DNA from: a virus
Taxonomy: Duplodnaviria > Caudoviricetes
DNA: 64,000 bases
Virus record (IMG/VR): IMGVR_UViG_3300028603_000018
Span: 32,001 to 96,000 of that record
Direction: 5' to 3' (one strand)
The first letter of the stretch is position 1, and every line of letters begins with the position of its first letter. Of the stretch, positions 588-51,990 are shown in pieces. A program made the translations under genes and the position numbers. The notes under the pieces were generated by a model. The model did not search any database, was not told the DNA's origin, and saw nothing but the letters and a program-made list of their open reading frames with translations.

Positions 588-1286
588 ATGCGTGAGATAT
601 TGATAGCAGGAGGAATTGAGACTGGACTTGATCCTTACTGGAATAATGTGTCTCTGTTATTACCTTTATCTGGCGATGACGGATCTAAACCTCTTTTAGA
701 TGCAACAGGAAAAGCTATTACTTACCATGGTTCAGCACAGATAGTAGAGACTCCTTCTAAATTTGGAGAGGGTAGTCTTTCTGCATTAACAGCTTCAGAC
801 TATCTATCCTTTCAAGGCGGGTCTCCTTTTAATTTCAGTAATAATGATTTCACTATTGAATTACAGTTATATGTAAGCTCATCTTCAACAGGTTCTATTC
901 AAGCCATATATGAGGATCGTGTCAATGCAGCGACCGATCTTGTCTGTGCACTTACTTATACTTCTAATAAACTAACTATGTGGATGTGGATCTATGGTGT
1001 TCATGTTACAGCAGTTGGTTCAGGTCTTACCGTACCTCCTAATACATTTAATCACTTAGTCTGGTGTCGATCAGGTAATACTATTAGAACATTTATAAAT
1101 GGTGAAATTAATCAAACCTCCACTTATACAGGAACAGCAGGTGGTGGACCAACAGTGCGTTTATTAGGAAGTACTTATAGTCAGCCAGTAAATGCTTATG
1201 CTAATGATATTAGAGTAACTAAAGGTATAGCTCGCTATATAAGTTCTTTTGATCCTCCAACAGAACCTTTCCCAATTAATAGTTAA
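588..1286 (+). CDS. LamG/concanavalin A-like lectin domain virion (tail fibre-like) protein
   Basis: DPYWNNVSLLLP, SKFG, DFTIE, NHLVWCRSG.TIRTFING, DIRVTKGIARY...FDPPTEPFP, typical of phage LamG tail proteins. Confidence 0.8.
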   Translation: MREILIAGGIETGLDPYWNNVSLLLPLSGDDGSKPLLDATGKAITYHGSAQIVETPSKFGEGSLSALTASDYLSFQGGSPFNFSNNDFTIELQLYVSSSSTGSIQAIYEDRVNAATDLVCALTYTSNKLTMWMWIYGVHVTAVGSGLTVPPNTFNHLVWCRSGNTIRTFINGEINQTSTYTGTAGGGPTVRLLGSTYSQPVNAYANDIRVTKGIARYISSFDPPTEPFPINS

Positions 1287-1305
1287 TATAAAAAAGGATT
1301 TAGAA

Positions 1306-2003
1306 ATGAGTAAAGAATTAATGTTAATCCAATCCCTAGTTGGTGGAGGGGGGTAACGAATGGCGATATTGTATTTTACGGTGAGTTAGGTCCGAATTTT
1401 TTAACTTATGAAGATCTAAGTCTCCATTTTAATGTTGGGGAAGGGCAGCTTAATACTGGAGTAGGGGTAAATCACTGGCTTCGGTTCACTATTGATGATA
1501 AAGAAATTATAATTAGTAAGGTTAGTGTTAGACGTTCTTTAACATATAAACATCTATACTCGAAAGGCTTAATCTACGGTACTGATGATGTAGGTCTTTA
1601 CACCCCTGATGGGTTAGTTGGTGTAAATCAATTAAAGACTATTGTTATTCGAGGACAGGCTTACAAATGTCGGTTAATTAGAGGCTGTGATGGCGTTTCT
1701 GGGCTTACGACTGGTAATAGTGGTAATGATCCTGTAGGTACATACAACTCTGAATGGAGTCGATTATTCTATCCAATAGTTACAGATAAGAAAGACGTTG
1801 TGTCTTACCAAGGTCCTATGATTGGTAATTATACCGACGATAGTTTAGAAATGAATGTCCGATATAGCTGGTGTCAGGAAGTTCTAAATAGCGGACCTAC
1901 TACTCAGTCAGTCTTAAGAGGTGGTTTTAGTGTAAGTAGAATGGTTTGGGCAGGTAATGGGAATTACAACGTATGGCGACCATGTCTTGAAAAGATTGAC
2001 TAA
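1306..2003 (+). CDS. phiKZ-type paralogous virion/tail-fibre-family protein, split by a -1 frameshift at G6 (1348-1353)
   Basis: aaggat RBS, ATG1306 MSKELMLIQSLVGGGG* stop at 1354; the -1 frame is open 1314-2003 with no start codon before 1800 and encodes FYGE, WLRF, GLIYG, YKCRLIRG, SEWSRLFY, SWCQE, WRPCLE. Confidence 0.75.
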
Positions 2004-2019
2004 TTATTCTACTGCTGAA

Positions 2020-2062
2020 ATATTTAATTCTAGATTATTTCAATTATATATAACTGTTATGA
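2020..2062 (+). promoter_or_regulatory. early/middle-type phage promoter (43-bp repeat copy)
   Basis: atatttaattctagattatttcaattatatataactgttatga; 42/43 identical to 39295-39337; resembles the phiKZ TATATTAC-type motif. Confidence 0.6.
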
Positions 2063-2093
2063 CGTCACTAGTTAACAACTCAACATTCTTAAG

Positions 2094-2381
2094 GTGTTAA
2101 ACATGGACTATAGAACAAAGTTGGCTGTAGAGTATATCGAAGATAAAATCAATAAGCTATTATTTACAACTGATCCTGATCTTTTTCTTTATCAGGATCA
2201 GGGCTTTGCTATTATGCAGCAATGGGATTCTGATACTGTTTCTGGATATGAGCCTACTAATAGATTCTATGTCTGGGTAATAGCTGAGCGTAAAAGAGTG
2301 AGTGCTGAAGATTCACTCCAGAATACCATTAAACAGTTTATTGAAGTTATTGAATCTCAACATGAAACTTCCCTTAACTGA
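2094..2381 (+). CDS. hypothetical protein
   Basis: ORF downstream of promoter; true start may be ATG2103 after taaggt. Confidence 0.65.
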   Translation: MLNMDYRTKLAVEYIEDKINKLLFTTDPDLFLYQDQGFAIMQQWDSDTVSGYEPTNRFYVWVIAERKRVSAEDSLQNTIKQFIEVIESQHETSLN

Positions 2382-2871
2382 CTTCATTTCTTTTACGCTT
2401 TTAAAAAGCTATGAGAATTATTGGAAAGAGAAGTATCTTAAACCAAACCAAGTAGAATTACGGTCTAGATCTCGATATAGTGCTGTAGACAGATTGAGAG
2501 TTCCTGTGCCTGTTCTTATAAGGACTGAACATGGTTCTCTTTTGTTCTCTCTTTCTTCTTCTCCTCAACGTCAGGTAAAGAACCTAACGAATAAATTAGA
2601 GGATTTGAGAGTTAAGGTAATTGAGTATTTAGTTCTTAAGGATTCGGTAACAGAAGAAGTCCTAGAGTATTATAGAGAACTAAAACAACACGTAAGCTAT
2701 CATCGCTATCCAACCAACCACTACTTAAGAAACTTTTATATTATCTCACTTCTAGAGTCAGGCTTTACACTTATTAACGCTAACTTAGGAAGAGGAGTCG
2801 ATATAGAACAACTTCTTAAACAATACCCTACACAATTCAAGGATTACTTTGGTAATCTTAGTAGTAATTGA
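2362..2871 (+). CDS. hypothetical protein, paralog of 2986..3501
   Basis: ORF 2302..2871 trimmed to ATG2362; shares FSLS..P.+Q.K.L.N, LL..G..L, L.KQYP.Q with the next gene. Confidence 0.65.
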   Translation: MKLPLTDFISFTLLKSYENYWKEKYLKPNQVELRSRSRYSAVDRLRVPVPVLIRTEHGSLLFSLSSSPQRQVKNLTNKLEDLRVKVIEYLVLKDSVTEEVLEYYRELKQHVSYHRYPTNHYLRNFYIISLLESGFTLINANLGRGVDIEQLLKQYPTQFKDYFGNLSSN

Positions 2872-2875
2872 AAAA

Positions 2876-2910
2876 CATAATAGAGCTTCCTAAGAAGCTC
2901 TATTTATGCC
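2876..2910. terminator. CATAA...TTATGCC hairpin
   Basis: cataa-tagagcttc-ctaa-gaagctcta-tttatgcc. Confidence 0.65.
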
Positions 2911-2985
2911 CTATTTATAGATAAGCATTTCAACAGTAAACCCTTTCTAACTATAGAGTAATCAAAAGGAGCAAAGGTACTCAAC

Positions 2986-3501
2986 ATGAAGGTAGTTATC
3001 AACTCTTTTAAAACCATCGATGAGTTCGAAGTACATTGTACTAAGATGATTCCTCGACTAACGAGATTCAAGCATTCAGAACTACGATTGAATGCTAAAA
3101 TGGCTGTCTTTGTCAAAACAGATAGAGATATCTTTACCTTATCATTCACACAAGTTCCTGTTAAGCAAATGAAAACGCTACTTAACAGAATGGATATGTT
3201 CGATGTTCCAGTAAATGAACTAGGTTATCTAGAAGTTACTGTAACTGAAGAGGATGTGGAAGAGTATCCTGAGTATTTCTCACACTCTACCTCAAAGGTA
3301 ATAACTTCAAGAGATAAGCATGACTACACTATTCCTTGTGAAGCACCTTTTCATACACTCGTAGCAAAGAAAGCTTTCTTTTTAGAATACCTTTTAAAAG
3401 AAGGTCATCTTGTTGCTAAAGCAGGTGTTCAAACAGGAGGTAGTTATTACCATCGCTTGTCTAAACAATATCCCAAACAACTCGTTAGTGGTTATCGATA
3501 A
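2986..3501 (+). CDS. hypothetical protein, paralog of 2362..2871
   Basis: 171-aa ORF with aaggt RBS. Confidence 0.7.
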   Translation: MKVVINSFKTIDEFEVHCTKMIPRLTRFKHSELRLNAKMAVFVKTDRDIFTLSFTQVPVKQMKTLLNRMDMFDVPVNELGYLEVTVTEEDVEEYPEYFSHSTSKVITSRDKHDYTIPCEAPFHTLVAKKAFFLEYLLKEGHLVAKAGVQTGGSYYHRLSKQYPKQLVSGYR

Positions 3502-3512
3502 GGAAATAAGTC

Positions 3513-3917
3513 ATGAATAAAATCAAACTAGTAAAGAAGCGGGATGTAGAGTTCATAGACTTTACAAGTATTAGGACAAGAATCATCGAAAAGGAGGGGA
3601 AGAGTCTAATCTTACATCTTAACCATTCTTACACTGAGGATGACAGATATGTTGTCATTTACCATAATGACTCCGTTTTTCCTATCTTACATTTCTCAGC
3701 GACTTGTCAGGTTAGTCAAGTAACTGAAAAAGGATTCTCTGCATACGGTACGATGGTATTGAGAGAAGGACAATGGGGATTCAAAGCTATTGATTCCTCC
3801 TTTTATGAAATCTATCACATTCCACATCTACCAGAATGGGAGCGATTAGAAGAAGCAGAACTTGAAGTCGCTGAGAAGTATCTATCTCAATGCGATCTTT
3901 CTGAATTCTTAGACTAA
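3513..3917 (+). CDS. hypothetical protein
   Basis: 134 aa, aaggaa RBS. Confidence 0.7.
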   Translation: MNKIKLVKKRDVEFIDFTSIRTRIIEKEGKSLILHLNHSYTEDDRYVVIYHNDSVFPILHFSATCQVSQVTEKGFSAYGTMVLREGQWGFKAIDSSFYEIYHIPHLPEWERLEEAELEVAEKYLSQCDLSEFLD

Positions 3918-3927
3918 AAGAGGAAGG

Positions 3928-4413
3928 GTGATGTTTATTTTAAAGAAGACACTTCATGCTGAGATTCAGTTAGCTGAGTTCAGAGGCTATCATAAAGCAA
4001 GAGAAGATCTGATTAAGGAGAAAGAAACATATGCTGAATTTGATCGTCAGCAATTACTGAACACCTTCATTATTGGTGTAAGTAATGAGTATGAAAATCC
4101 TTATATTGGTAAGGTTGTTGATTTCTTTTCTTCTGATCCAGTTATTTGGGACTTTGTAACAAATACTGAATTTGTTTTTATGGGCGCTTTTAAACCCTAT
4201 ACCAAACAGCTATTTGAAGCCTTATTGAAACTCTCTCCTGAAGAACGCGCAGCAGTTATGTTCGTCAATCTGTATAAGGGTAAAGAAGTCTCTTTCAATA
4301 AGGTATTGCGTCCTGATACTGCTATACTCTCTCCTGATGAAATCAAACATACCTTAATGACAAATGGTTATGATTGGGAGAAAGGCGTAGGAAATCCCAC
4401 CATTTCAAAATAA
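3928..4413 (+). CDS. hypothetical protein
   Basis: 161 aa, gaggaagg RBS. Confidence 0.7.
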   Translation: MMFILKKTLHAEIQLAEFRGYHKAREDLIKEKETYAEFDRQQLLNTFIIGVSNEYENPYIGKVVDFFSSDPVIWDFVTNTEFVFMGAFKPYTKQLFEALLKLSPEERAAVMFVNLYKGKEVSFNKVLRPDTAILSPDEIKHTLMTNGYDWEKGVGNPTISK

Positions 4414-4480
4414 TTAGGAATACTGTCTAAAGGTATACATATAACTATCTTTAGACAGTGTCTATAAATAGGAGATTACA

Positions 4481-4693
4481 ATGAAACGTTTAATTAGAAC
4501 AAGTCTGGAGTCTTTTAGAACTTTAGATTATTTCACTTTAGTTAAAGAGGAGCAAACCATATTACCTAATACAGAAGAAGTTAAAGAAAACATTTGGGTA
4601 TATCGTGACCCAATGGGAGTGTTTATCGACTGGCACAACCATATGAGAGATCTAGCACTACGTCATGATTTACGACGCAACTTTGAGTTCTAA
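4481..4693 (+). CDS. hypothetical protein
   Basis: 70 aa, aggaga RBS. Confidence 0.65.
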   Translation: MKRLIRTSLESFRTLDYFTLVKEEQTILPNTEEVKENIWVYRDPMGVFIDWHNHMRDLALRHDLRRNFEF

Positions 4694-4757
4694 TTTAAAG
4701 GAGTTTACTTTGAACTTCCTACAGTTAGTAGCTCTAAGAATAGATAATTCAATCAAC

Positions 4758-4788
4758 GGCATAAAGAGAGGGAATAATCCCTCTCTTT
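4758..4788. terminator. bidirectional GCATA-type hairpin between convergent genes
   Basis: ggcata-aagagaggga-ataa-tccctctcttt. Confidence 0.7.
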
Positions 4789-4806
4789 AAATAGACTTAC
4801 TTAACC

Positions 4807-5055
4807 TTAAGGATTCTCAGGATCTGGAACTGGATCAGGATCAGGTTCATCATCACCAGGAACTTCCGTATCATCATCACCGTCTTCAAAACCAGCTTTC
4901 TCATAAAGTTCAGGATACAGAACTTCATTAAGAGGAGCTAGCGTATTACCAGCACGACGATAGACAGTTTTCTTTTCTTCACTACTCCAAATAAATGGGA
5001 ATACTAGTGCTTTAAGATCAGCTTGTCTGCGCCATGGTCGAATAGTTGCAGCCAT
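4807..5055 (-). CDS. small protein with acidic Asp/Pro tail, possibly late/virion
   Basis: gaaggt RBS; C-terminus EDGDDDTEVPGDDEPDPDPVPDPENP. Confidence 0.65.
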   Translation of the reverse strand: MAATIRPWRRQADLKALVFPFIWSSEEKKTVYRRAGNTLAPLNEVLYPELYEKAGFEDGDDDTEVPGDDEPDPDPVPDPENP

Positions 5056-5170
5056 ATAAACACCTTCTTAACATGTTAAAAAATAATGAGAGGTTATATT
5101 TCTCAAAAGATTCAGCCTAGTTGTGTTTGAAATAGTGTTTTTAATTAGAAGTTAAAAAGAACTTTATTTT

Positions 5171-5192
5171 AAGTACATATCACTATATTGAC
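5171..5192 (+). promoter_or_regulatory. putative phage promoter
   Basis: aagtacatatcactatattgac, member of the ACATAT(A/C)AC family. Confidence 0.5.
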
Positions 5193-5231
5193 AAAGGTTA
5201 TTACTCATTTAACTCTCCTAGGAGAAGAATA

Positions 5232-5537
5232 ATGTCAGTCTGGCTAAAGATGGATGCTGAGAAACAAAGCGTCGTAGGTAAATTCATTGAACGTGCTTAT
5301 TATGGTAGAGGTGAATTGCGTTCTTTAATTGACCTAGCACCCAACAGACAAGGTCATCCTGATGATGGTAGGTGTCATTCTCTTAGACTAAGTGGTAAAG
5401 CAGAAGATCTTCTTCCTTGGTTAGAGTTGTTTGAAGAACTCACCAAAACAAACCTATCTGAGATTAAGAAAGAATTACGAGATGGAAGGGAAGTTATTAC
5501 TGCTAGAGTATTACATCCTTCTTTGTTCATGAATTAG
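5232..5537 (+). CDS. hypothetical protein
   Basis: 101 aa, aggaga RBS. Confidence 0.7.
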   Translation: MSVWLKMDAEKQSVVGKFIERAYYGRGELRSLIDLAPNRQGHPDDGRCHSLRLSGKAEDLLPWLELFEELTKTNLSEIKKELRDGREVITARVLHPSLFMN

Positions 5538-5556
5538 TTTTTAGTATCTTCTATGT

Positions 5557-5778
5557 ATGGAGACTTTACCTATGGGTCACCGCATTATCATTCTTCCTTT
5601 TGAAGAAGCTGTTTCAACAGCAGTAAAACAAAACATTGAGTACGACAAAAGCATTGGTATTTATAACGAAGGCAATGAAGATATTTACCGAGAAGAAGCC
5701 ATCTTTCTGTTAACGGTCTTAGGGGAGAATTTCCTCCCGGAAGACCCATCAATCCCTCACATCAAAGTAAAGAAATGA
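5557..5778 (+). CDS. hypothetical protein
   Basis: 73-aa ORF in a tight operon. Confidence 0.6.
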   Translation: METLPMGHRIIILPFEEAVSTAVKQNIEYDKSIGIYNEGNEDIYREEAIFLLTVLGENFLPEDPSIPHIKVKK

Positions 5779-6017
5779 GAAAATACTTTAAAGCAGAAAC
5801 ACACGAAGAACATTTGGAACGTCTCCGCAGTCAATATCCTGGTAGGTATATCTATTGGGAGAAATCTAGAGAAGTCCCTAAAGGAGAAGTCTTTAAAAAC
5901 TGGACTAAGATCTTTAACGAACGAGAAGCTAAACGACTATCTTCTCAAGTAGATAAAGATTTTAAGACCTACCTTGAAGCAGCAAAACTATCTGAAGATG
6001 GTAAAGCTTTAGCGTAA
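5775..6017 (+). CDS. hypothetical protein
   Basis: 80 aa, ATGA overlap with the previous gene. Confidence 0.65.
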   Translation: MRKYFKAETHEEHLERLRSQYPGRYIYWEKSREVPKGEVFKNWTKIFNEREAKRLSSQVDKDFKTYLEAAKLSEDGKALA

Positions 6018-6031
6018 GAAAAGGAAAAAGT

Positions 6032-6391
6032 GTGGAAGCTATTAAAAAATCTAAATACATTCTAGCTTCATATTGTCAAGATATGAAGGTAGGGCAGAAA
6101 AAACCTATTATATTTGATACGGATAAAGGAGAGTATATCTATATCGAAGATGTAGGTTATGTACTAAAGAAAGAAGTAGAGTGTGGTATTATTAATTATG
6201 TCTTCCTATACCACATGGAAAAGCATCGCCAGCGCTTTAAAGTAAAAGTCGTCGGTAATGGGGAAAATAAAAGAACTATTGCAGTGAGGACGAAAAATAA
6301 GGCTTGGTTTATTAAGCTTTATAAAATCCCTGCTGAACTTATCAATGATAGAAAAGTTGTCCAGTATCCACGACACTTCATCATTTACTAA
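6032..6391 (+). CDS. hypothetical protein
   Basis: 119 aa, GTG start after aaggaa. Confidence 0.65.
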   Translation: MEAIKKSKYILASYCQDMKVGQKKPIIFDTDKGEYIYIEDVGYVLKKEVECGIINYVFLYHMEKHRQRFKVKVVGNGENKRTIAVRTKNKAWFIKLYKIPAELINDRKVVQYPRHFIIY

Positions 6392-6508
6392 TAATTAAAT
6401 AAGTAAAAGGGGTTTGAGGCAGCCTCTTTTTTTTAATTTTTAATTATTAGTTCCATCATATGGATTTTCGATAGTCCTATCTTTAACACTAATTTAACGA
6501 CAAACAAG

Positions 6509-6721
6509 ATGAACCTTATTAACTTGAACGAAAAAGCGATTACCAATATCAAGATTGGTGATGAAGTACGATCCTATCTCACGCATGATATTGGTACAAT
6601 CAGTGAAGTTGATCTGGAAAATAAGACTATCAGTATTAGTTGGGCTAATGGTCATGAGAGTTCTGAAGTAGCTCATAACAGACTAAAGACTGTTGGTTAC
6701 GTTAATAAAGTTTCAAACTAA
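6509..6721 (+). CDS. small SH3/KOW-like beta-barrel hypothetical protein
   Basis: IKIGDEVRS...GTISEVD...ISISW pattern. Confidence 0.55.
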   Translation: MNLINLNEKAITNIKIGDEVRSYLTHDIGTISEVDLENKTISISWANGHESSEVAHNRLKTVGYVNKVSN

Positions 6722-6735
6722 ACTACCAAAGAGTT

Positions 6736-6768
6736 TACAGGGGTCTTTTTAGACTCCTGTATTATGCC
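6736..6768. terminator. hairpin ending in TTATGCC
   Basis: tacaggggtct/agactcctgta arms followed by ttatgcc. Confidence 0.65.
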
Positions 6769-6878
6769 TTAGTTTTATTTTTTTATCCAGTTGAGCTAAT
6801 ATATAGGTTAGTTTAATTTGAACATATATCATTATTATAATAAGCTAATAGAATTATAAGAAACAAAAGGAACTTAAC

Positions 6879-7055
6879 ATGAAAGAGTATAAATACTTTA
6901 AAAGTGATCTAGATGACTTTATAGCTTTCATCATTGCTGCTTCAGCATCAGTAATATTTATCTTAATGCTGGTGTTTAACTTAGGTGTTAGACACGATGT
7001 TAAAATGAAACCTGGTACAGAAATTAGAGCTGAGAAAAAAGAAAATGGAAACTAA
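6879..7055 (+). CDS. small membrane protein (58 aa, not in ORF track)
   Basis: aaaggaa RBS; MKEYKYFKSDLDDFIAFIIAASASVIFILMLVFNLGV..., one TM helix; promoter-like acatatatcat at ~6822. Confidence 0.6.
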   Translation: MKEYKYFKSDLDDFIAFIIAASASVIFILMLVFNLGVRHDVKMKPGTEIRAEKKENGN

Positions 7056-8122: not shown

Positions 8123-8127
8123 CATAA

Positions 8128-8415: not shown

Positions 8416-8419
8416 TAGA

Positions 8420-21180: not shown

Positions 21181-23412
21181 ATGAAGCCTACTAACAAGAT
21201 TTTCGGTATTAATCAATCGGAAACGCCCGCACTGGGACTTAACAAAGCTATTGATCAGCTCAAAGACAAATTCGATCATGCACAACTGCGTGGATCGGAG
21301 AGTCTGGGTAAAGCAGTTTTCTCCTCGGAAGGTCTGGACCCAACGAGTTCTGTAGCTACTGAAGCTCGTGATCTCTATCAGAACGTTCAAGTCTCTCTTG
21401 AGAGCGTTTTCAAAGATACCTTTGGTATGGTAGAAGACGCTTCCGGTCGTAGCGTTGCTGCTGTTACTATTTCTGAAGCTGGTCAACGTGCTGCCGCTGC
21501 TGCTGCAATCATGGCGACTAACGTCCCTGCTTACCTGCAATCTGCACCACACGTCTCCCGTGGTTCGATGGAATCGATTCCTCTGATCACTGGTACTAAC
21601 CTTTCTTACACGACCTCTAAGCGTCAATTCTCGGCTGAAGCTTACGATACTCGTGAGCTGCGTGATACGACTGTATACTCGATCATCTATAACCAGAAAC
21701 ACGGTAACCAAGACGAGTTCGCAGAATCCTTCTTCCCAACCGTTACGGTCTCGCCTGATCAAGCTGGCTACACAGTCACAATGAACGTGATGACTGTGAT
21801 GAATGAAGTTCGCCGTGACATCTCTGGTGATGAAACTGATTTCGGTCGTAAGAACCTGATTCATGCTGTTATTGACCCAACGATTCTGGACAACGATCAA
21901 ACTCGTCTGGTTCCAGTTTATCGTCCAGAAGCTGCTGCTAACTTCGTTGATCCTGCTCTGGTTCCTCTTGCTTCGTTTGATGTGGCTGGTGAAGCAGTCC
22001 CAACGACTTCGCTCTTATTCGATAACCGTATCGATATTCTGGGCATCTCTCAAACTGAAGCGCTGCTTGAAACCGGTATTATGGATTCGACTGATGCTGT
22101 TGACTCCAGTCTGTTCCTGGACAACGTCGTGATGAAAGTCACTGACGGTGCGGACGATGAAGTGATTCGTCTGAGCACTCGCCATATGCATGAATCGAAC
22201 TTCTATCCAGTTGTACAAGGTAACTTCCGTCAACTGCGTCTGATGTTCGATACTAAAGATGTTCTGGTGGGTGGTAGCAGTGGTGCTATTAAAACCGTTC
22301 GGGGTGCTGACTCTGTTCTGCTTGCACCTATCGTTACTTCTGAACTGGCTGTTCGTCTGTCGTTCGTTGTTTCGGGTCAGATCAACGTTGAAACGGGTCT
22401 TATTTCGCTGCAACGTACTCGTCCAATCGTTTCGGTTATCCGTGACGAACAAGGTAACAAGATTGCTACCGACGATCCTCGCTATCAAACCGTTGTTGAT
22501 CTCTTTGAAGACGCTGAACTGATCGGTTACACTCTGGATGGTTATCGTACCAACTCGAACCGTCGTCAACGTGGTCAGCTGGTTGATACGACCTATCAAT
22601 CGCAAATGTATCAGCCACAGCTGCGTAGCCCAATCACGATCCCACGTCCTGAGACTAACGTTTCTCAGACTGATTCGATTGACATCGCTGCACTGCTGGT
22701 CGCTACAGGTATTCGTACGACTAACGCTGCTATTGACGAGATCTTCAAAACGCAGACCGTTCTGGCTCAACACTTTAATGCTAATGATCCCGTTTCTGCT
22801 ACGCCTACTCTGATGGGTGTTGCTCTGGGTCCAATCCGTCCCTTCTATGAGACTGATGTCATTGACGTTGAAGCTGAGATCAACTCGCTCAAATCGCATG
22901 AGAAAGTTCAGGATATGCAAGCTGTCCTGCTGAACCGTATCCGTGACGTAGCTTATCGTGCATGGCGTGATTCGGGTTATAAGCCTGTTGCTGATGCACT
23001 GGCTGGCGGTATCTCGAAGAAGCCAACTGTACTGATCGGTACTGATCCAGTTATCGCTAACTATCTGATCACTCCAGGAGATGTTCGTACCCTGGGTGCA
23101 GAAATGGACTTCAAGATCGTTTCGACCTTTAACCAGCGTGTCAAAGGCCAGATCTTTATTACCTTCATCAATCCGGATTCGGCTAAGTCTGGTGTGCCAG
23201 ATCCGCTGACCTTCGGTAACATGGGTTGGAAGCCTGAACTGGTTATCGCTCTGCCAACGTACTTCAACGGTGCTAACAGCCGTCAGATTACTGTACAGCC
23301 TTGCTTTATCCACTCGATCAACTGCCCGATCCTGGCGCACTTCACTGTTGTTAACCTGGATAAAGTCACTCGCGTTCGTAACCCGATCGCGTTTGAAGAA
23401 GTCCAACCTTGA
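21181..23412 (+). CDS. major capsid protein (phiKZ gp120-like)
   Basis: 743 aa, strong high-expression codon bias, QDEFAESFFPTV, RTNSNRRQRGQL, GTDP.IA.YL; S/A-x-E cleavage motifs in the N-terminal region. Confidence 0.92.
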   Translation: MKPTNKIFGINQSETPALGLNKAIDQLKDKFDHAQLRGSESLGKAVFSSEGLDPTSSVATEARDLYQNVQVSLESVFKDTFGMVEDASGRSVAAVTISEAGQRAAAAAAIMATNVPAYLQSAPHVSRGSMESIPLITGTNLSYTTSKRQFSAEAYDTRELRDTTVYSIIYNQKHGNQDEFAESFFPTVTVSPDQAGYTVTMNVMTVMNEVRRDISGDETDFGRKNLIHAVIDPTILDNDQTRLVPVYRPEAAANFVDPALVPLASFDVAGEAVPTTSLLFDNRIDILGISQTEALLETGIMDSTDAVDSSLFLDNVVMKVTDGADDEVIRLSTRHMHESNFYPVVQGNFRQLRLMFDTKDVLVGGSSGAIKTVRGADSVLLAPIVTSELAVRLSFVVSGQINVETGLISLQRTRPIVSVIRDEQGNKIATDDPRYQTVVDLFEDAELIGYTLDGYRTNSNRRQRGQLVDTTYQSQMYQPQLRSPITIPRPETNVSQTDSIDIAALLVATGIRTTNAAIDEIFKTQTVLAQHFNANDPVSATPTLMGVALGPIRPFYETDVIDVEAEINSLKSHEKVQDMQAVLLNRIRDVAYRAWRDSGYKPVADALAGGISKKPTVLIGTDPVIANYLITPGDVRTLGAEMDFKIVSTFNQRVKGQIFITFINPDSAKSGVPDPLTFGNMGWKPELVIALPTYFNGANSRQITVQPCFIHSINCPILAHFTVVNLDKVTRVRNPIAFEEVQP

Positions 23413-39290: not shown

Positions 39291-39294
39291 TTCT

Positions 39295-44131: not shown

Positions 44132-44174
44132 AACATCTACAAATATCCTCTCTACCATAAAAGGAAATACAATC

Positions 44175-45230: not shown

Positions 45231-45237
45231 GTAAACA

Positions 45238-45276
45238 GCATAAATAGGGAGAGCAATTAGCTCTCCCAAATATGCC
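45238..45276. repeat. 21-bp hairpin element copy (terminator)
   Basis: gcataaata-gggagagcaattagctctccc-aaatatgcc. Confidence 0.8.
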
Positions 45277-45290
45277 TTTCTTTTTTTCTT

Positions 45291-46163
45291 TCAGACTTCA
45301 AAGATACCATCGTCTTTATCACGAGGATCATTAAATACTTCACCGTCTTCCGTTCTTTGAATAGGACTCTCAGGCTTAGTGCTTATACGACACTCATCAA
45401 TATCTTCAGGTGTAATCCCTACATCTAGATTACCAGCAATAGAAAATAACTTAACATCTACCATAGTCGTAGGAATAATCCTACCTGCTACAAACTCTAA
45501 CCATTTTAAAGGATGTTGTCCTTTAGCCATCATTTCTTGAATCTCTGGATCATCTTCAGCTTTATCTCTAAATAGAGCTGGAGTAAATGCAGTAGTATGA
45601 AACAATAATGTTTTCTTAAAGTTCTCAGCTTGAGCATTCATCCAATCAAAGAGATCATACATGAACATCCCTTTGAAAGTATTATGACAATAATCTGCTG
45701 TTAACTCTTCATTGCTTTTATGGATAAAGGTAATATCCATAGAATGATCAAAGTATTGTAGTAGACGAGCTTTATAAATAAACTCAAACTCTTTTCTTAG
45801 CTCATCACTAAAATCATAAGGATAGGTATTAATAACTAGTTGAGGAAAGCCTCTAAAAGGCTCAGCCATATGTTCATTGAATGAATCCTTTAAGATCGAA
45901 ACAAGAAGAACCTCTACATTAGAGAGAAGAGATAGTTTTAATGTCTCAATATTTCTTAAAGCATATTTTTCTCTGAACATCTCATAAGTAACAGGACCAA
46001 ACTCATCTCTACGTCGTAAATGATAAAGACCTGTTTTTAAATGAGTTTTAGTATACTCTTCAAAGACTTCTGGAAAGTGTTGTCTTAGCGTACCTAGTCG
46101 TGTATCAAGAATTTCATCTAAACTTAGATAATAGATCCGTCTAATTTCTTCAGTAGGTGTCAT
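45291..46163 (-). CDS. conserved phiKZ-like protein
   Basis: YLSLDEILDTRLGTL, INTYPY motifs. Confidence 0.75.
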   Translation of the reverse strand: MTPTEEIRRIYYLSLDEILDTRLGTLRQHFPEVFEEYTKTHLKTGLYHLRRRDEFGPVTYEMFREKYALRNIETLKLSLLSNVEVLLVSILKDSFNEHMAEPFRGFPQLVINTYPYDFSDELRKEFEFIYKARLLQYFDHSMDITFIHKSNEELTADYCHNTFKGMFMYDLFDWMNAQAENFKKTLLFHTTAFTPALFRDKAEDDPEIQEMMAKGQHPLKWLEFVAGRIIPTTMVDVKLFSIAGNLDVGITPEDIDECRISTKPESPIQRTEDGEVFNDPRDKDDGIFEV

Positions 46164-46166
46164 GTA

Positions 46167-46766
46167 TTAACTTAGTATTAGAATATCAATGGGATTAGGA
46201 CGAGAAAGATGTAGTAGTGCTAATGTTAATAAGAAACCATTATTCTTAGTTATGAGTTTCTTTACCTCGACTTGATTAGGAATGCGAATAAGTATCTCAC
46301 TAGGCAATTCCCATGAAGTAAGTTGTGAGGTCTTATTCTCTACTTCTAATCGATTAACTAATAACTCCCTATCCAGTGTAATCAAACCATCTACTACACA
46401 CGCACAAACCTCATCATATTCTCTTTGATTAGGTGCCCAACTTGATTTAAAAGTAATATGTAAATCAAACAGAAAATCTTGAACTGCTGGACTAGCTTTA
46501 AATACAGGTAAAAAAGAAGTAGTAAAGAACCTATCAGTAAAAATAGTATCGTAAGAAACCCTAAGCAAGAATTCGTATAGAAATTGAGCTAATGGACTTC
46601 TAGGACCATAAGTACTGCCTTCTGATCTATCAATCGTCGTGTATGCATTCCTAGCAATAGGGAGTTCTGTTACATGCATAGGAAGGATACGTTTAAAAAT
46701 CTCTTGAATTAAAAGAAGAGGTCTTTTTAGATTAGGTGAATGATGTTCAAAGGTCCGTATTTCCAT
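46167..46766 (-). CDS. hypothetical (probable virion) protein
   Basis: 199 aa in the RNAP-subunit operon. Confidence 0.7.
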   Translation of the reverse strand: MEIRTFEHHSPNLKRPLLLIQEIFKRILPMHVTELPIARNAYTTIDRSEGSTYGPRSPLAQFLYEFLLRVSYDTIFTDRFFTTSFLPVFKASPAVQDFLFDLHITFKSSWAPNQREYDEVCACVVDGLITLDRELLVNRLEVENKTSQLTSWELPSEILIRIPNQVEVKKLITKNNGFLLTLALLHLSRPNPIDILILS

Positions 46767-46785
46767 TTGCTTTTTCTATATCAAA

Positions 46786-47451
46786 TTAAAGTGTGTTATT
46801 AAGATGCATACCGTAAAGATAAGAGCGTAATGTAGCAACAGATTCTGCTTCACTGCCTATTTTCATTAATGCTTCAATAGAAGCACCACCAGTAGCATCA
46901 ATGGATTTATTCATAGCTCTAAAGGCTAGAATATCACCGCCTCGAACTTTCATGAATTCTAATAAGCTCTTCTCTAAATCATAACCTAAGATGACTTGTG
47001 CCTCTACGTTAGAAAGCGTAGAGCCTTTAGATTCACCTGTAGCTTGACCAGTAATCTCATCAATAGTGTTGCTATGCTTAGGTAAAGTTTTCTTATCATC
47101 TAGAATTTGAGCTTGTCTTCGAATAGGGAGTTGGAGAATGAGGTATTTCTTATTAGAAAGATATTTTGGATTTTGTCCATCATCAATCCAGATACGTTCT
47201 CGTAATGCAATACCCCACTCTTCAGCGATATCTATTTTCTCATCCCTTGTAATCGTAGGTTCTTTACCGTTTTCTCTGAATACAACAAGGGATTCTTCGC
47301 CTGTAATTAATCTATTTACAAAAGCATCGATATCAGAATCACTCATTTGAGAAAAGGCAACTCGATAATACTCGGCAGTATTACCGCCAGGATCAACACG
47401 CTCACAATCAGCTAAGACTTGTGTTTCAAAAGCTTTTCTATTTCCAGCCAT
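46786..47451 (-). CDS. virion RNA polymerase beta subunit, C-terminal part (phiKZ gp149-like)
   Basis: LPIRRQAQ...IDEITGQATGESKGSTLSNVEAQV...EFMKVRGGD..AF, matching the C-terminal beta region. Confidence 0.8.
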   Translation of the reverse strand: MAGNRKAFETQVLADCERVDPGGNTAEYYRVAFSQMSDSDIDAFVNRLITGEESLVVFRENGKEPTITRDEKIDIAEEWGIALRERIWIDDGQNPKYLSNKKYLILQLPIRRQAQILDDKKTLPKHSNTIDEITGQATGESKGSTLSNVEAQVILGYDLEKSLLEFMKVRGGDILAFRAMNKSIDATGGASIEALMKIGSEAESVATLRSYLYGMHLNNTL

Positions 47452-47541
47452 AACCTTTCTTCTATATTAGGTGTTAAGTAGACTTCTTACAAAATAACAG
47501 TTATAAGAAGTCTAAGTAAGATAAACATTCAAAAGATTGGT

Positions 47542-48009
47542 TCAAAGCTTAATATTAACGTTGTGAATAATTAACCCTCGTTCTTCAGCTCGTTTAATCA
47601 TGTCCTTTGTTCCTGGAGATTGACCATCCCAGTAAGTAAGTAGATGACTAGCTTCATAAGACATATCGTCATTTCTTAAAAAGCCTGCTCTCTTACCCAA
47701 CTCATTCCACTTAGCTGTAAACTTATAACATTCAAAAGGCGTTAACTCACACCACTTAATAATTAGATTATCAGCACCACTAGGAGCATCACCTGAAATA
47801 AAAGCAATATGTTTTCCCTTATGCTCTTTAACCAGGTAATCAGTTAAAGTCTTTCTAAACCAACCTACATCAGAGAAGCCTCTCGTACCAGCAATAATGA
47901 TACGAGAGTCATAATGTTTCTTTCTTAACTCACTGATGTTAGATGGATGAGAACTTACTTGTTCTCGATCAGTACTGGAATCACATCCAGTTTCAGCGAT
48001 CCTAACCAT
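47542..48009 (-). CDS. SLOG-family (YspA/DUF2493-like) protein
   Basis: IIIAGTRGF, ISGDA.SGAD, GKRAGFLRN..M, WDGQSPGTKDMI; start uncertain. Confidence 0.8.
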   Translation of the reverse strand: MVRIAETGCDSSTDREQVSSHPSNISELRKKHYDSRIIIAGTRGFSDVGWFRKTLTDYLVKEHKGKHIAFISGDAPSGADNLIIKWCELTPFECYKFTAKWNELGKRAGFLRNDDMSYEASHLLTYWDGQSPGTKDMIKRAEERGLIIHNVNIKL

Positions 48010-48287
48010 GTTTCATTCAACCCATCGTTATAAAGAAGACTACGAGTTCCGTACGTAGAGATATCTTTTTCCAATTCAATCTTAACTAAACGACGACGAA
48101 TGTCTCGGTTAATAGCTAAGCGAGCTTGGCTGTCTGTAATATCAGTATTGACTTCAATACCATCTTCAGAAACACGAGCAATAGGAGGCAGTTCATTTTC
48201 CTTTAGATATTCGTTGACTGTCTGTACGAGTGGATGAGGAATAAATTCATCAATGACTTCTTTTTGATCTACTTCTTTATTTTCCAT
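47955..48287 (-). CDS. hypothetical protein
   Basis: 110-aa ORF in operon. Confidence 0.7.
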   Translation of the reverse strand: MENKEVDQKEVIDEFIPHPLVQTVNEYLKENELPPIARVSEDGIEVNTDITDSQARLAINRDIRRRLVKIELEKDISTYGTRSLLYNDGLNETWLGSLKLDVIPVLIENK

Positions 48288-48613
48288 TATTCAAACCTTA
48301 AATTAACAAAAGTGAAATTATTACCGTACTTCTCTTTAAAGACAGACCATGTAAAAGTACCTAAATCAGATTCTGCATGATCAGCTTCTATATTTACTAT
48401 TAAGAAATGAAAGACATTATTAATGCGAATAAGATAATATCCTGTTTCATTAATAGTTCCTTCATTCCAAGCGTATTTATTAATATATACAAACTTAGGA
48501 GGAAGTGGATTATCGATGTTAGGAGCTTTTGCTTTGGTGTTATCTTCCACTGCTTTATAAGTAGCTTCAAATTTATCTAGACAAGCTCTATCATAACTGT
48601 GATTTAAATCCAT
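48287..48613 (-). CDS. hypothetical protein
   Basis: 108 aa, aaggaa RBS. Confidence 0.7.
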   Translation of the reverse strand: MDLNHSYDRACLDKFEATYKAVEDNTKAKAPNIDNPLPPKFVYINKYAWNEGTINETGYYLIRINNVFHFLIVNIEADHAESDLGTFTWSVFKEKYGNNFTFVNLRFE

Positions 48614-48622
48614 ATTACTTCC

Positions 48623-50131
48623 TTATTTTGCTTTCTTATCTTTAAAAGCGTCATATCGAGGGACATCTTTAACAGCTTCAGGAACATCCTTATCTTCTAA
48701 CCAAAAAGGAACGTAGCGTTTTAAACGCATGTCAAGCAAGTCTTTCGTAGATAATGGTTTATCACCTTGCTCGTAGTGATCCATACAACTATAACCACGA
48801 GTATCTAATAGAACATCCCAATCGTAACCTAAAGCTTTAATATCATCGTAAAGTTCTTTAGGAGTGCAGTAGTACTCTGGAGCCATATTCCAGAAGTATT
48901 GCATCTGGCACATTTCTGATGTAATATTAACAGCTCTACGTAACTTGACATCAGAATCTAGTTTATTTCTAACTGTAGTTCGAGAAAGCTTGCAGTCTGG
49001 ATAGAGTTCCAAGTAATAGTTTTGTAAGTTACCACCGATACCAAAACCTTTGCTATTTTTAATATAGTGGAATTCACTCAACGCAGGCTTAACTCCTTCT
49101 ACCTGAGAAACAATAATAGAAAGACTAAATCCTGAAGAACCATACTTACCACGAAGTTGAGTTACTCTCACTTCGTTTAGATCTGTAGAACCTGTACGTT
49201 CATTATCAAATCGATCACTTGGATACTCAGGTCCTTTCGTTCCTCGGTTAGCAAGAATACTTGCTCCATTAGCCCACCAACAGTTATGTGTCAAGAAGGT
49301 AAACTTCTCAGGCACACCTTTAATCTTTACGTTAGACTTTAAGTGTTGGAGTTTCTTAGGATTAGGATTATATTGATCCATATTAAACTCAGCACCGATA
49401 TGAGCAGTCATGATCAAGTAATGTGAGCTTGCCATGGTCAAAGAAGGTAGAGTCATTAAGAACCTAGTCTTTTGCATTCCTTGACGCATGAAGATCATAT
49501 TAGCACCAGAATCACCAAGACTATTATCATCTTGCATTTTCTCTACGTCTTTCGTAGAGAACTCAGTAAAAGAATCTAATAATGAAAAAGTAGGATATGG
49601 AATTTTAATAAAACCATTACGTTCACGATTAAGGTAAGGGGTGTTACCTGTCACCGTTGCTTTATTCTCTGCTTTATCAAAAAGGAATTCTCTAAGAATA
49701 TCGAAGTATTCGTCACCTTCATGCATTGACTTATCAGTAAACATGAGACGATCTTGATCTACAATACCTTCACCAACTGACATTCCCATTTCATCAGTTT
49801 CAATACCATATTCTTCCATGGCATTATGAAGCGAAATGACACGGTCTTCATCTACGTTTAATTCGGTATCGTAGATATGTCCTTTAGCCAGTTTATTCCT
49901 AGCTGCCATTTTACCATACATGTAGTGAGCAATGGTAGATTTGAAGTTATTACCGTGACCTACAATACCAGTGATGTGTGCTAATCCACCCACTAGAATA
50001 TTTTCATTATAGCGACCTTTTACATATCTGCCTGTTGGGATATCAAATAAGCAACCAATAGGCCATAAGGCTTTAGTAGGCATACTAGCAGTCAAGCCAG
50101 TAGTCTTTGAATCTTTGTTCTCTTTACTCAT
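48623..50131 (-). CDS. uvsX: RecA/UvsX-like recombinase (phiKZ gp152-like)
   Basis: GCLFDIPTG, Walker A GHGNNFKST, YDTE, LLDSFTEF, TAHIG, LRGKYGSSG. Confidence 0.85.
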   Translation of the reverse strand: MSKENKDSKTTGLTASMPTKALWPIGCLFDIPTGRYVKGRYNENILVGGLAHITGIVGHGNNFKSTIAHYMYGKMAARNKLAKGHIYDTELNVDEDRVISLHNAMEEYGIETDEMGMSVGEGIVDQDRLMFTDKSMHEGDEYFDILREFLFDKAENKATVTGNTPYLNRERNGFIKIPYPTFSLLDSFTEFSTKDVEKMQDDNSLGDSGANMIFMRQGMQKTRFLMTLPSLTMASSHYLIMTAHIGAEFNMDQYNPNPKKLQHLKSNVKIKGVPEKFTFLTHNCWWANGASILANRGTKGPEYPSDRFDNERTGSTDLNEVRVTQLRGKYGSSGFSLSIIVSQVEGVKPALSEFHYIKNSKGFGIGGNLQNYYLELYPDCKLSRTTVRNKLDSDVKLRRAVNITSEMCQMQYFWNMAPEYYCTPKELYDDIKALGYDWDVLLDTRGYSCMDHYEQGDKPLSTKDLLDMRLKRYVPFWLEDKDVPEAVKDVPRYDAFKDKKAK

Positions 50132-50234
50132 TAAGATTATAACCTCATTTTATGATTATCATCGTGAATGTTCTATCGTTCCAAATGATCTCAGGATAGA
50201 GTTATTTTTTACATTAAAAAGGAATTACAATAAC

Positions 50235-51053
50235 ATGGTTTCTTCAGCACAGAGAACTTTAGCTGAATTGAGCTTATTAAGCACTGATGCTCAAGCAGAC
50301 ATGCAATCCTTATTTACCACCTTCATCCCTCGTTTAGGCGATGAATTACGTAAGGGTTGGCAGACCTTATTAAGCTATACACCTAAAGAAAAGATTATTA
50401 GTAATGCTGATCGATTTATCGAATTGGTTGGTAAAGAAAACTATTTAGATATCTCATCTTTCCATATTGCTTGTCCTGAAGGATTAGCTGTTGATTACTT
50501 AACCTATACTGATGTTTTAGCTAAAGCTGTAGAGTATGCTTTAGAGACACAAAAGACAAGTGTTAAGAATTTAAAAACACACTTATCTAAAATGCTTAAC
50601 AATAGTGTCATTTCTTATTCTCCTTCTGGGTTAGAGAAAGCAATTACAGACCGAGTTAAGATTAGAGAGAATATCGTTAAAGAGATTAAAGGTTCTTTAT
50701 CTAATCAGACTTATCGTAAGATGGCTTATGGTAATGCTATTAACCGTAATAGTGATTGGGTCCAAGTATTTAAGAATATCGATAAGATTCAACTCTTAGA
50801 TTCTGAAGAGCGTAAATCATTAGCTAAAGATTTGAGTGACGTACAAGAACTACTGGATGCAGTTATTGCTAAAGTAGAGAGTCCAGAGAATAAAAACGTT
50901 AATAAACAAGCTGTAAAGTATACTTCTGATTTAGTATATGCTGTAGCAGAAGAAGTTAAGTTTGTAGCTCAGACTTACTATCTAACTGAATCCTTAGTGA
51001 ATCGTTTATCTGATGGTGTAGATAACACCATTAAAGTATTTGCTAAAAAGTAA
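50235..51053 (+). CDS. conserved phiKZ-like virion protein
   Basis: ORF 50115..51053 trimmed to ATG50235 after aaggaa; PEGL...YL.Y motif; divergent from the recombinase. Confidence 0.7.
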   Translation: MVSSAQRTLAELSLLSTDAQADMQSLFTTFIPRLGDELRKGWQTLLSYTPKEKIISNADRFIELVGKENYLDISSFHIACPEGLAVDYLTYTDVLAKAVEYALETQKTSVKNLKTHLSKMLNNSVISYSPSGLEKAITDRVKIRENIVKEIKGSLSNQTYRKMAYGNAINRNSDWVQVFKNIDKIQLLDSEERKSLAKDLSDVQELLDAVIAKVESPENKNVNKQAVKYTSDLVYAVAEEVKFVAQTYYLTESLVNRLSDGVDNTIKVFAKK

Positions 51054-51064
51054 TACCAAAGTAC

Positions 51065-51103
51065 AGCATAAATAAGGAGACTAAAAAGTCTCCTATTTAT
51101 GCT
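51065..51103. terminator. GCATA...TATGC hairpin between convergent genes
   Basis: agcataaata-aggagact-aaaa-agtctcct-atttatgct. Confidence 0.8.
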
Positions 51104-51114
51104 CTTTAATGGAA

Positions 51115-51990
51115 TTAGAAATCTTGAGTATTGGTTTCGGGATAAGCTCTATTAGGACCCCAAATAATTCTTACACCACCATTTTTCTGAACATGTGTGG
51201 TGGCTGTTCTTGAAAAACCGCCCATGCCATGAATACTTGTTCCATTAATAACTGAACCTGATGACGTTATAATATTACTAGTGACAACACCATCAGGTCC
51301 TTTTCCTCTGATTCCTACACCACCACCACCTGCGCCACTACCACCCTGTCCAGCTCTTGCTGGGAGATTACCAGAGCCACCAGTTTGGTTAATATTACCA
51401 CTTCCACCTCTTTCAGAATACCCACCACCACCTCCGCCTTTTAGTACTGCGGAGCTAGCTTGAGGGCTATTTTGAGAACCTCCTGCACCACCATTTCCAC
51501 CACCAAAATCTATCCCAGTGGTTCCAGATATATTATAAATCGCATACGTTCCTCCCGCCACTTGTGTAGATGATCCTGATGAGTTACTTCTCCCGCCTTG
51601 ACCACCATTAGCTACCATAAAGGCCGGGAGAGCTACATCACCATTATCATCATCATTGTTTATTATAGCGATACTGGAATGCCCTCCTGCTCCTCCATGT
51701 CCGTTTGTAGCGCCCTGATAACCAGCTCCTCCAACAACGACTTCAACTTTTCTACTGGTAGGAACGTCAACTTTAGCAACCCAACAAAGCGCGCCACCAC
51801 CACCAGACCCAACAGAACCAGTAGTCCGAGTACCACCTCCACCTCCACCTCCACCTACTGCTACAGCAGAGAAGGAGGTAATTCCTTCAGGAAATTCAAA
51901 AATATAAGTGCCGGGTTCAATGAATTCTACTTGACCGCTTAAACCATCGTCGAGAGGAGGGAGTAATCCTACCAATAAATCTTTACTCAT
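51115..51990 (-). CDS. glycine-rich tail-fibre-like protein with MSKDLL leader
   Basis: PGTYIF..P.G+TS.SAVAVGGGGGG, GGGGALCW, VVVGGAG, GGVRIIWG...YP. Confidence 0.8.
   Translation of the reverse strand: MSKDLLVGLLPPLDDGLSGQVEFIEPGTYIFEFPEGITSFSAVAVGGGGGGGGTRTTGSVGSGGGGALCWVAKVDVPTSRKVEVVVGGAGYQGATNGHGGAGGHSSIAIINNDDDNGDVALPAFMVANGGQGGRSNSSGSSTQVAGGTYAIYNISGTTGIDFGGGNGGAGGSQNSPQASSAVLKGGGGGGYSERGGSGNINQTGGSGNLPARAGQGGSGAGGGGVGIRGKGPDGVVTSNIITSSGSVINGTSIHGMGGFSRTATTHVQKNGGVRIIWGPNRAYPETNTQDF

Follow-up and report, generated by a model that had tools for sequence, protein, structure and literature searches.

Leader-tagged genes with frame-changing repeats in an uncultured phiKZ-like jumbo phage: a putative family of switchable virion adhesins

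Bacteria are well known to defend themselves against phages by phase variation. The reverse, in which a phage uses slippery repeats to randomise its surface proteins, has been documented for Campylobacter phages and, very recently, for T-even phages. The former carry hypermutable polyG tracts in receptor-binding-protein genes (Sorensen et al. 2021, Cell Rep 35:109214, as cited in PMC10877375). In T2, T4 and other phages, coding repeats give reversible frameshifts by polymerase slippage, which the preprint reads as bet-hedging (Gomez, Barrick & Waters, bioRxiv 10.1101/2025.10.21.683753). The phiKZ fibres have their attachment site beneath gp130, and gp131, gp133, gp134 and gp135 share an N-terminal anchor and differ in their C-termini (PMC13250141). 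Here we describe a family of genes with a common N-terminal leader, several of which carry a repeat directly behind it. Four of them lie in a 64,000-nucleotide stretch of phage DNA (the window), taken from the IMG/VR record IMGVR_UViG_3300028603_000018 and equal to bases 32001-96000 of contig C90; a C90 coordinate minus 32000 is the window coordinate. An earlier model-made note (the sequence-only reading) had proposed modular virion adhesins with a shared docking leader and a homopolymer switch. Our joint reading is that the leader marks a switchable family of 11 genes and docks binding domains on the virion, and we consider it reasonably probable. The trick of the Campylobacter and T-even phages would then recur in an uncultured nucleus-forming-type jumbo phage, as a whole switchable gene family.

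The sequence-only reading had listed four genes with a similar start (588, 1306, 10695 and, on the minus strand, 51990), three of which share ATGAGTAAAGA at the DNA level, and all of this is in the sequence as quoted. The runs that it placed at the leader/domain junctions are present as well: C10 in frame at 10695, G6 and then TAA at 1306, and an interrupted ctccctcctctc at 51990(-). Pfam and PHROGs confirmed the body domains (LamG, Kelch, Gly_rich_2 and a phage virion-protein domain). The 1306 body had been assigned to a phiKZ paralogue family; the kinship with phiKZ holds, and the family is that of gp83, not the gp131 fibre family. The window features are as follows, with lengths in amino acids (aa) and with ON and OFF denoting a body in or out of frame with its leader.

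588..1286, plus strand: LamG gene, 232 aa, leader MREILIAGG (Pfam PF13385, E 3e-11; PHROG baseplate-wedge/virion LamG segments)
1306..1356, plus strand: leader mini-ORF (ORF, open reading frame) of the frameshifted gp83-family gene (OFF), ATGAGTAAAGAATTAATG... = MSKELMLIQSLVGGGG, then TAA
1348..1353, plus strand: G6 tract at the leader/domain junction of the 1306 gene, TAA directly after
1353..2003, plus strand: body of the 1306 gene in the -1 frame, 216 stop-free codons, gp83-type, ending in a WRPxLE motif (phrog_1062, E 6e-26)
10695..11606, plus strand: Kelch beta-propeller gene, 303 aa, leader MSKELLI, start MSKELLISSTPPP, ON here (Pfam Kelch, E 1e-31)
10725..10734, plus strand: C10 tract in frame, encoding PPP(H), codons 11-14
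51115..51990, minus strand: Gly-rich-domain gene, 291 aa, leader MSKDLLV, start MSKDLLVGLLPP (PF21722, Gly_rich_2, E 4e-9)
51952..51963, minus strand: interrupted CT-rich run ctccctcctctc behind the leader, encoding LPPL, no homopolymer

The divergent leader of the 588 gene fits the wider family motif M-x-E-x-L-[LI], and its LamG protein has an identical copy on 6 contigs of other assemblies. A purine-rich AAAAAAGGA stretch lies 8-16 nt upstream of the ATG of the 1306 gene. The -1 frame of this gene is open at 1314-2003 and has no ATG, GTG or TTG before 1800; therefore one extra G (G7) would yield a 232-aa leader-body protein. Its body is 27% identical (E 1e-18) to that of an intact paralogue on C90, g108233, and from the model of this paralogue a C-type-lectin-like fold is probable. 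The Gly-rich gene at 51990(-) matches a PHROG 'tail fiber assembly' segment (E 7e-11). It also contains a perfect (CCACCT)x4, which is (GGTGGA)4 on the coding strand, at window 51833-51856, encoding a GGGGGGGG stretch; this hexamer repeat is in frame, and its length could change without a frameshift. Tandem Repeats Finder detected no further out-of-frame repeat switches in the window.

We scanned all frames with a wider motif and found that the leader family on C90 consists of 11 genes instead of four, with MS[KR][DE]xL[ILV] starts and once MREILI. A six-frame search of the whole 4.13-Mb bin that contains C90 found the string MSK[DE]L 7 times. All 7 occurrences are on C90, and all 7 are ORF starts without an in-frame Met upstream. 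The members are listed in C90 coordinates.

32588, plus strand: MREILI, LamG, intact
33306, plus strand: MSKELML, gp83-type, G6, OFF
42695, plus strand: MSKELLI, Kelch, C10, ON
83990, minus strand: MSKDLLV, Gly-rich, intact
108233 (g108233), minus strand: MSKELLI, gp83-type, intact
109247, minus strand: MSREFLI, Kelch, G7, ON
117327, plus strand: MSKDLLI, Gly-rich, OFF
119109, minus strand: MSKEILI, Kelch, OFF
137510, plus strand: MSKELLL, LamG, C9, OFF
151725, plus strand: MSRELLI, LamG, intact
197848, plus strand: MSKELLL, Kelch-like, G10, ON

Each gene has the same layout, namely an N-terminal leader (MSKELLI form, once MREILI), a short Gly/Pro/Ser-rich linker and one ligand-binding-type domain. 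The domains belong to four unrelated binding types (LamG, Kelch propeller, Gly-rich and the probably C-type-lectin-like gp83 domain). BLASTP among the members detected three paralogue pairs only, at 24-31% identity, and the remaining pairs were undetectable. The Leu codons of the leader differ (TTA/TTG/CTA/CTG) while the peptide is nearly invariant; therefore the conserved object is the peptide. With Leu codons varying and bodies diverged this far, the alignments point clearly to selection of the leader at the peptide level.

Further, we tabulated the G/C runs on C90 by length. There were 34 runs of 5 nt, 10 of 6 nt, 2 of 7 nt, none of 8 nt, 1 of 9 nt and 2 of 10 nt, and each of the three runs of at least 9 nt in the 244 kb follows a leader ATG at a distance of 30-35 nt. 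Two further members have their G6 and G7 runs in this position too. At least five members have a repeat directly behind the leader, in codons 11-16 (G6, G7, C9, C10, G10), and a sixth has an intragenic 7-nt unit: the Gly-rich gene 117327 is broken by three ATTGACT copies, and two copies restore the frame. GGG and CCC account for 8% of Gly and Pro codons, respectively, on C90, so the tracts (for example PPP written CCCCCCCCC) do not reflect codon preference. These intragenic tracts are longer and commoner than composition and codon use predict, and the leader/repeat pattern is far beyond chance. Four of the 11 members are broken, and all four OFF bodies are still stop-free, with no secondary lesions. 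In one of them, the Kelch gene 119109, the frame is lost after codon 15 and no repeat is present.

The same phage was located by exact-protein look-ups in ENA ERZ27247346 and ERZ27247376, in JGI 3300015214 (= NCBI GCA_023230825.1) and in Logan SRR8449813 and SRR6484323. The ERZ27247346 copy was identical to C90 wherever compared. About 31 kb of the JGI copy and about 31 kb of ERZ27247376 were compared with C90 (copies 99.95% identical), and all tract differences given here are between sample consensus sequences. We observed 3-4 single-nucleotide polymorphisms, one intergenic T10/T11 difference and three coding indels in those stretches. All three coding indels were in leader genes, at repeats, and each toggled the frame. 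At C90 109197 (gene 109247), G7 is ON, and G8 and G6 are both OFF. At window 10725, C10 is ON and C12, found in JGI 3300015214, is OFF (frame lost). Gene 117327 is OFF with ATTGACT x3 and ON with x2, the ON product being 279 aa. Frame-changing length polymorphism is thus found among near-identical genomes. As coding indels in these copies occur only at leader-gene repeats, slipped-strand ON/OFF switching of the leader genes appears well supported. The contingency locus of the sequence-only reading gains from the natural tract-length differences at two leader/domain junctions and from the 7-nt repeat in a third gene; its main OFF example, the G6 at 1306, did not vary in three samples.

Contig ends coincide with tracts in several cases. 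One Logan contig begins inside the window 10725 C tract with at least 14 C, and an ENA contig begins at the last C of the same tract. One Logan contig ends at the G7 tract and another inside the C9 tract, while the two ends of a 94,899-bp ENA contig coincide exactly with one poly-C tract and with the start of the next poly-C gene. We regard these breaks at four tracts as suggestive. The last 130 nt of ERZ27247376 contig k141_1654286 (L022) leave the phage sequence exactly at the ATG of the C9 gene (C90 137510). We considered a cassette swap at this gene and rejected it: the end is a coaBC-like bacterial fragment absent from the bin, and in our reading this contig end is chimeric and lies close to a tract that is difficult to assemble.

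An exhaustive HMMER search with g108233 gave 298 matches; a word-indexed protein search with the same query returned a self-match only. The family profile recognised phiKZ gp83 (E 3e-33), and the members in cultured phages are phiKZ gp83, EL gp155, PhiPA3 gp080-083 and 201phi2-1 gp452/gp456. The body motif of the family, F-x-GEV...ITG..LA...GL..GT..WL.F ... GWRPVLE, is present both in window 1353-2003 and in g108233. An M-x-E-x-[LM]-L start was found in 32 of the 149 best diverse gp83-domain homologues vs 50 of 8150 background ORFs (0.6%), and in gp83-type homologues a G/P-rich stretch follows the motif. The leader reads MFELLLSSG in phiKZ gp83, MFELLL, MMESIL or MLELML in PhiPA3 gp080-083 and MIDL(L/M)(M/L) in 201phi2-1 gp452 and gp456. 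Both 201phi2-1 proteins are annotated in GenBank as 'identified as virion protein by mass spectrometry'. Judged by these sequences, the leader is the local, phage-specific form of the gp83-family N-terminal MxExLL motif. MREILI fits this motif directly, and MSKELLI fits it after removal of the initiator Met. Such removal is expected before Ser (methionine aminopeptidase), so that E-x-L-L in the MSK forms would stand at the same distance from the free N-terminus as in MREILI. The LamG, Kelch and Gly-rich members have no gp83 body homology and share the leader alone. A tblastn match of a Kelch gene, from residue 3, in phage PS119XW lies inside a 631-aa coding sequence and hence is no leader match. 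We found no published description of the N-terminal motif, nor of the place of gp83 in the virion. By the family leader, two annotated starts in cultured phages look wrong: for PhiPA3 gp082 (HQ630627.1 71348-72019, L028) a start reading MLELML lies in frame, 55 codons upstream of the annotated start, and in 201phi2-1 gp452 (L029) the leader MIDLLM lies 13 codons inside the annotated ORF.

In two uncultured relatives the leader is also found outside the gp83 family. Contig L026 (55.6% G+C) has MLEAML/MLEALL on two gp83-type proteins and one Gly-rich-type protein, and its leader genes are within a few kb of phiKZ_IP internal-head-protein genes. A sister jumbo phage (ENA ERZ27247346 k141_137411, 173 kb; L033/L039; IMGVR_UViG_3300028603_000068; 43.7% G+C) comes from the same sample as the C90 phage. 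Its gp130 homologue is 53% identical, and three of its genes have the leaders MKEQLL, MKEILI and MKELLL. The leader version is therefore uniform within a phage and differs between phages. Leader-pattern scans of two cultured phage genomes found the leader on gp83-type proteins only, and no repeat switches were seen there. The DNA patterns 'leader codons + C8' and 'leader codons + G8' gave 0 matches each in IMG/VR, and the exact leader DNA of the C9 gene gave 0 matches among JGI metagenome contigs, a set that may leave out near-identical records.

AlphaFold2, run on an alignment, gave a compact confident domain for g108233 (predicted local distance difference test score 79, predicted template modelling score 0.80). 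Residues 1-19 had no secondary structure and low confidence (<50 for residues 1-6), and the leader is accordingly predicted by this model to be a disordered N-terminal tail outside the fold. VIA-align comparison of the gp83-type domain gave Z 5-6.8 over 110-150 residues, where Z under 8 is not decisive. Almost all of its rows were C-type-lectin/FGE-like (PvdO, TvpA, EgtB, Mtd, TaqVP and C-type-lectin domains) and included the phage receptor-binding protein Mtd and variable proteins of diversity-generating retroelements. Foldseek against PDB returned no match for this domain at E <=0.001 (best E 0.3 or worse).

Four leader genes flank the fibre module of the phage. On the minus strand of C90 come the gp83-type gene, then the Kelch gene and the homologue of gp130 (E 2e-42 to phiKZ gp130); the order continues on the plus strand with two gp131-like fibre proteins (917 and 738 aa), a 528-aa protein and the broken Gly-rich gene, followed by the broken Kelch gene, again on the minus strand. 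Homology to the phiKZ gp174 pin or to PhiPA3 gp079 was considered for the gene upstream of the leader pair and rejected, as this gene is the gp130 homologue. The gp131-like N-terminal domain (YPFDPxGT...IIP..APF..) is in the 917-aa and 738-aa proteins and absent from all leader genes. The two fibre genes (C90 110651-115635; L007 2599-7583) share this N-terminal domain of about 250 residues and have internal repeats about 82% identical over 176 nt; the 738-aa protein ends in a Peptidase_S74 intramolecular chaperone, and the 528-aa neighbour contains part of a gp83-type domain internally. Complex prediction for the gp130 homologue with g108233 gave a median score of 0.01 (runs 0.00, 0.60, 0.01), which speaks neither for nor against binding. 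Homogeneity within a phage, divergence between phages, a flexible tether and ligand-binding bodies together have the look of a docking peptide for one phage-specific site, and we find such a role plausible from the sequences. For the Kelch, LamG and Gly-rich members 'virion adhesin' is a putative label, taken from fold type and partial gene neighbourhood.

The mechanism that we propose is as follows. In natural copies of the phage the repeats differ in length, and with the length the body comes into or falls out of the leader's frame, as slipped-strand contingency loci do. Each gene would be an independent ON/OFF switch, whose OFF state would cost only a peptide of 16-20 residues. The leader would serve as a free N-terminal address peptide (x-x-E-x-L-L, in the MSK forms after Met removal) that docks the domains onto one common virion site; we infer a common site because the homologous phiKZ gp83 and 201phi2-1 gp452/gp456 are virion components. 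Within a phage population the switches would produce particles that differ in their sets of surface-binding modules, a form of bet-hedging in adsorption.

Several observations weigh against this proposal. The G6 at window 1348 is OFF and the G10 at C90 197882 is ON without variation in three samples. The lesion of 119109 is identical in three samples and involves no repeat; therefore the family is subject to plain decay as well. Short-read sequencing copes poorly with long C/G runs, so the contig breaks alone could be technical. The relatives have the leader and no G/C tracts (including 21 kb of the sister phage that was examined), so the switches look like a recent addition in the C90 phage. 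As for docking, no partner was found, the RefSeq note on phiKZ gp83 reads 'structural head protein', and gp83 is mentioned neither in the phiKZ capsid paper nor in the tail atlas (PMC13250141). Leader genes adjoin the gp130 homologue only in the C90 phage, in the sister phage and, more loosely, on one other contig. Among 80 IMG/VR chimallivirus gp130 loci a motif-matching ORF was present in 4, with convincing leader genes only at the sister-phage locus, and on this count we rejected a general synteny of gp130 and leader genes.

The leader may have a function other than docking, which we regard as unlikely but worth weighing. It could be an inherited gp83 N-terminus that recombination at the 5' end has spread to other domains, or a signal for expression or translation initiation. 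It could also be the part that an assembly chaperone grips, or target the proteins to the capsid as the signal of T4 internal proteins does; the proteins would then not have to be external adhesins. The head-protein note on gp83 and its absence from the text of the tail atlas fit this possibility, as does the position of the L026 leader genes near those for internal head proteins. MSK is moreover a common N-terminal tripeptide in the C90 phage (11/248 genes, second to MSN with 12). However, synonymous variation under a fixed peptide argues against a signal at the RNA level. A leader that is uniform within a phage and differs between phages, across folds otherwise dissimilar, agrees with binding to a single partner specific to each phage. 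The bodies all belong to ligand-binding fold types of the extracellular kind, the gp83 domain probably so, and fibre genes are flanked by four of the members. A capsid-targeting signal of the T4 type, and with it the phiKZ protease motif S/A/G-x-E (S-K-E in the leader), was set aside: cleavage after residue 4 removes almost nothing, and the MSKD and MREI forms misfit.

Recoding is an improbable explanation of the tracts. They would then cause programmed ribosomal frameshifting or transcriptional slippage, giving a fixed ratio of truncated to full-length product (stoichiometry rather than a genetic switch), and 'OFF' genes would still have weak expression. RNA polymerase can slip on runs of 9-10 C or G, and CCC-N promotes +1 slippage. 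None of the three samples has the G6 gene in frame, yet the 216 codons of its body are undamaged and contain no start of their own, and GGG GGG TAA lets the P-site tRNA-Gly re-pair one base back beside a slow stop codon. On the other hand, the tract lengths differ between samples in the DNA, a difference that recoding does not need, and the 7-nt repeat switch cannot act by recoding. At window 1348 there is no canonical X XXY YYZ heptamer (A GGG GGG TAA, six G only), and the 87 nt downstream of the G6 fold no better than shuffles (z -0.32). Besides genetic switching, recoding may let some product leak from OFF alleles; the best candidate for such leakage is the G6 gene.

Decay of a dispensable paralogue family also seems quite improbable to us. 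Duplicates would be in the course of loss, frameshifts would strike homopolymers first, and the length differences would be neutral. This would agree with the 4/11 broken members, with the repeat-free lesion of 119109, with a G6 that is OFF everywhere and with relatives whose family has no tracts. However, the 9-10 nt G/C runs are made of rare codons, occur nowhere else in 244 kb and always lie 30-35 nt from the ATG; long rare-codon runs at one fixed gene position argue for selection of the tracts themselves. ON and OFF alleles coexist among the near-identical genomes and differ in both directions (G6/G7/G8; x2/x3), and the OFF bodies have no secondary lesions. Very improbable, finally, are sequencing or assembly errors at homopolymers: Illumina-type data do lose accuracy and coverage in long G/C runs, and several contigs end at tracts, but G6, G7 and G8 are short enough for reliable reading and differ between three assemblies with identical flanks, the copy number of a 7-nt unit is no homopolymer error, G10 was read identically in three samples, and the positional tie of tracts to leader genes is independent of sequencing.

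If the switchable docking family is real, some consequences follow. Since natural ON and OFF alleles are already in hand, the idea is directly testable. If the motif is a docking signal, it would locate virion proteins that are unplaced in current phiKZ structures, and foreign domains could be displayed on jumbo-phage particles simply by means of it. A bolder extension, which we put forward very tentatively, is that the six-residue address x-x-E-x-L-L is a general chimallivirus plug for lectin-like domains, copied here onto four folds with a hypermutable switch of its own in each gene, so that one burst would hold combinatorial adhesin sets. With at least five independent switches there would then be 32 or more adhesin states. 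There is also a warning for annotation, as 'pseudogenes', and contigs that break at G/C runs, may in such phages reflect real biology.

Contig C90 has 244,062 bp and 35.8% G+C. The other large contigs of its bin have about 64% G+C; therefore C90 is a mis-binned phage contig. Further low-GC contigs in the bin are C39 (145 kb) and C87 (87 kb). Judged from several proteins, C90 belongs among the phiKZ-like (chimallivirus-type) uncultured jumbo phages. Its major head protein is phiKZ-type (phrog_3231, E 7e-167), with at most 45% identity to cultured phiKZ-like phages, and further phiKZ-like markers are a Peptidase_S80 prohead protease, a split virion RNA polymerase beta subunit and a phiKZ gp130 homologue. 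Megablast of 12 kb + 3 kb of the window against GenBank phages gave no match, and peptide patterns from the major capsid protein found no relative in IMG/VR. The major head protein gene (window 21181-23412) is locally rich in G+C (44% vs 35%), and opposite to it lies an antisense ORF of 463 codons (window 22015-23406), most likely a compositional by-product. We also noticed T runs of 9-14 nt on the plus strand only, at window 18688, 29645, 30508 and 39532 and at 9 more places on C90 outside the window. All are intergenic, most stand behind a CT-rich word (..ctttcTTTTTTTTTT), and the longest A run on C90 is at most 8 nt. These T runs may be a promoter, a terminator or a strand-specific signal; one of them, at C90 200159 outside the window, is T10 vs T11 between samples.

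The closest parallel is found in the Campylobacter phages. Both systems have intragenic G/C homopolymers in putative host-binding genes, with varying length, ON and OFF states and a mixed population, which for the C90 phage is predicted. Unlike those Eucampyvirinae, the C90 phage is phiKZ-like, and its tracts stand at a fixed place behind a shared 7-residue leader, in an 11-gene multi-fold family with one 7-nt switch. The T2/T4 study reports putative loci in every functional gene class, whereas in C90 the long tracts are confined to one family and one gene position. In Klebsiella KP32/KP34-type phages a very short conserved N-terminal peptide reportedly attaches an exchangeable secondary tailspike to a common adaptor (Latka et al. 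2019). These podoviruses have trimeric tailspikes, of which each phage has one or two, and are not known to have repeat switches. The 1306 and g108233 bodies are homologous to the family of phiKZ gp83, EL gp155, 201phi2-1 and PhiPA3, and the N-termini have a motif of the same kind; unlike the cultured gp83 family, the C90 phage and two uncultured relatives carry the leader also on LamG, Kelch or Gly-rich proteins. Like phiKZ gp131-gp135, the leader genes encode paralogues with a common, in their case putative, N-terminal anchoring part and differing C-terminal binding domains, including a propeller (PMC13250141). The gp131-type anchor, however, consists of a folded domain at the N-terminus and of a helix that assembles into a six-helix bundle, whereas the C90 leader is 6-7 residues with a linker and shows no similarity to it. 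In summary, what sets these genes apart from the known phage contingency loci is the lineage, the 11-gene, four-fold family with its fixed leader-tract-domain layout, and the link to a widespread gp83 N-terminal motif.

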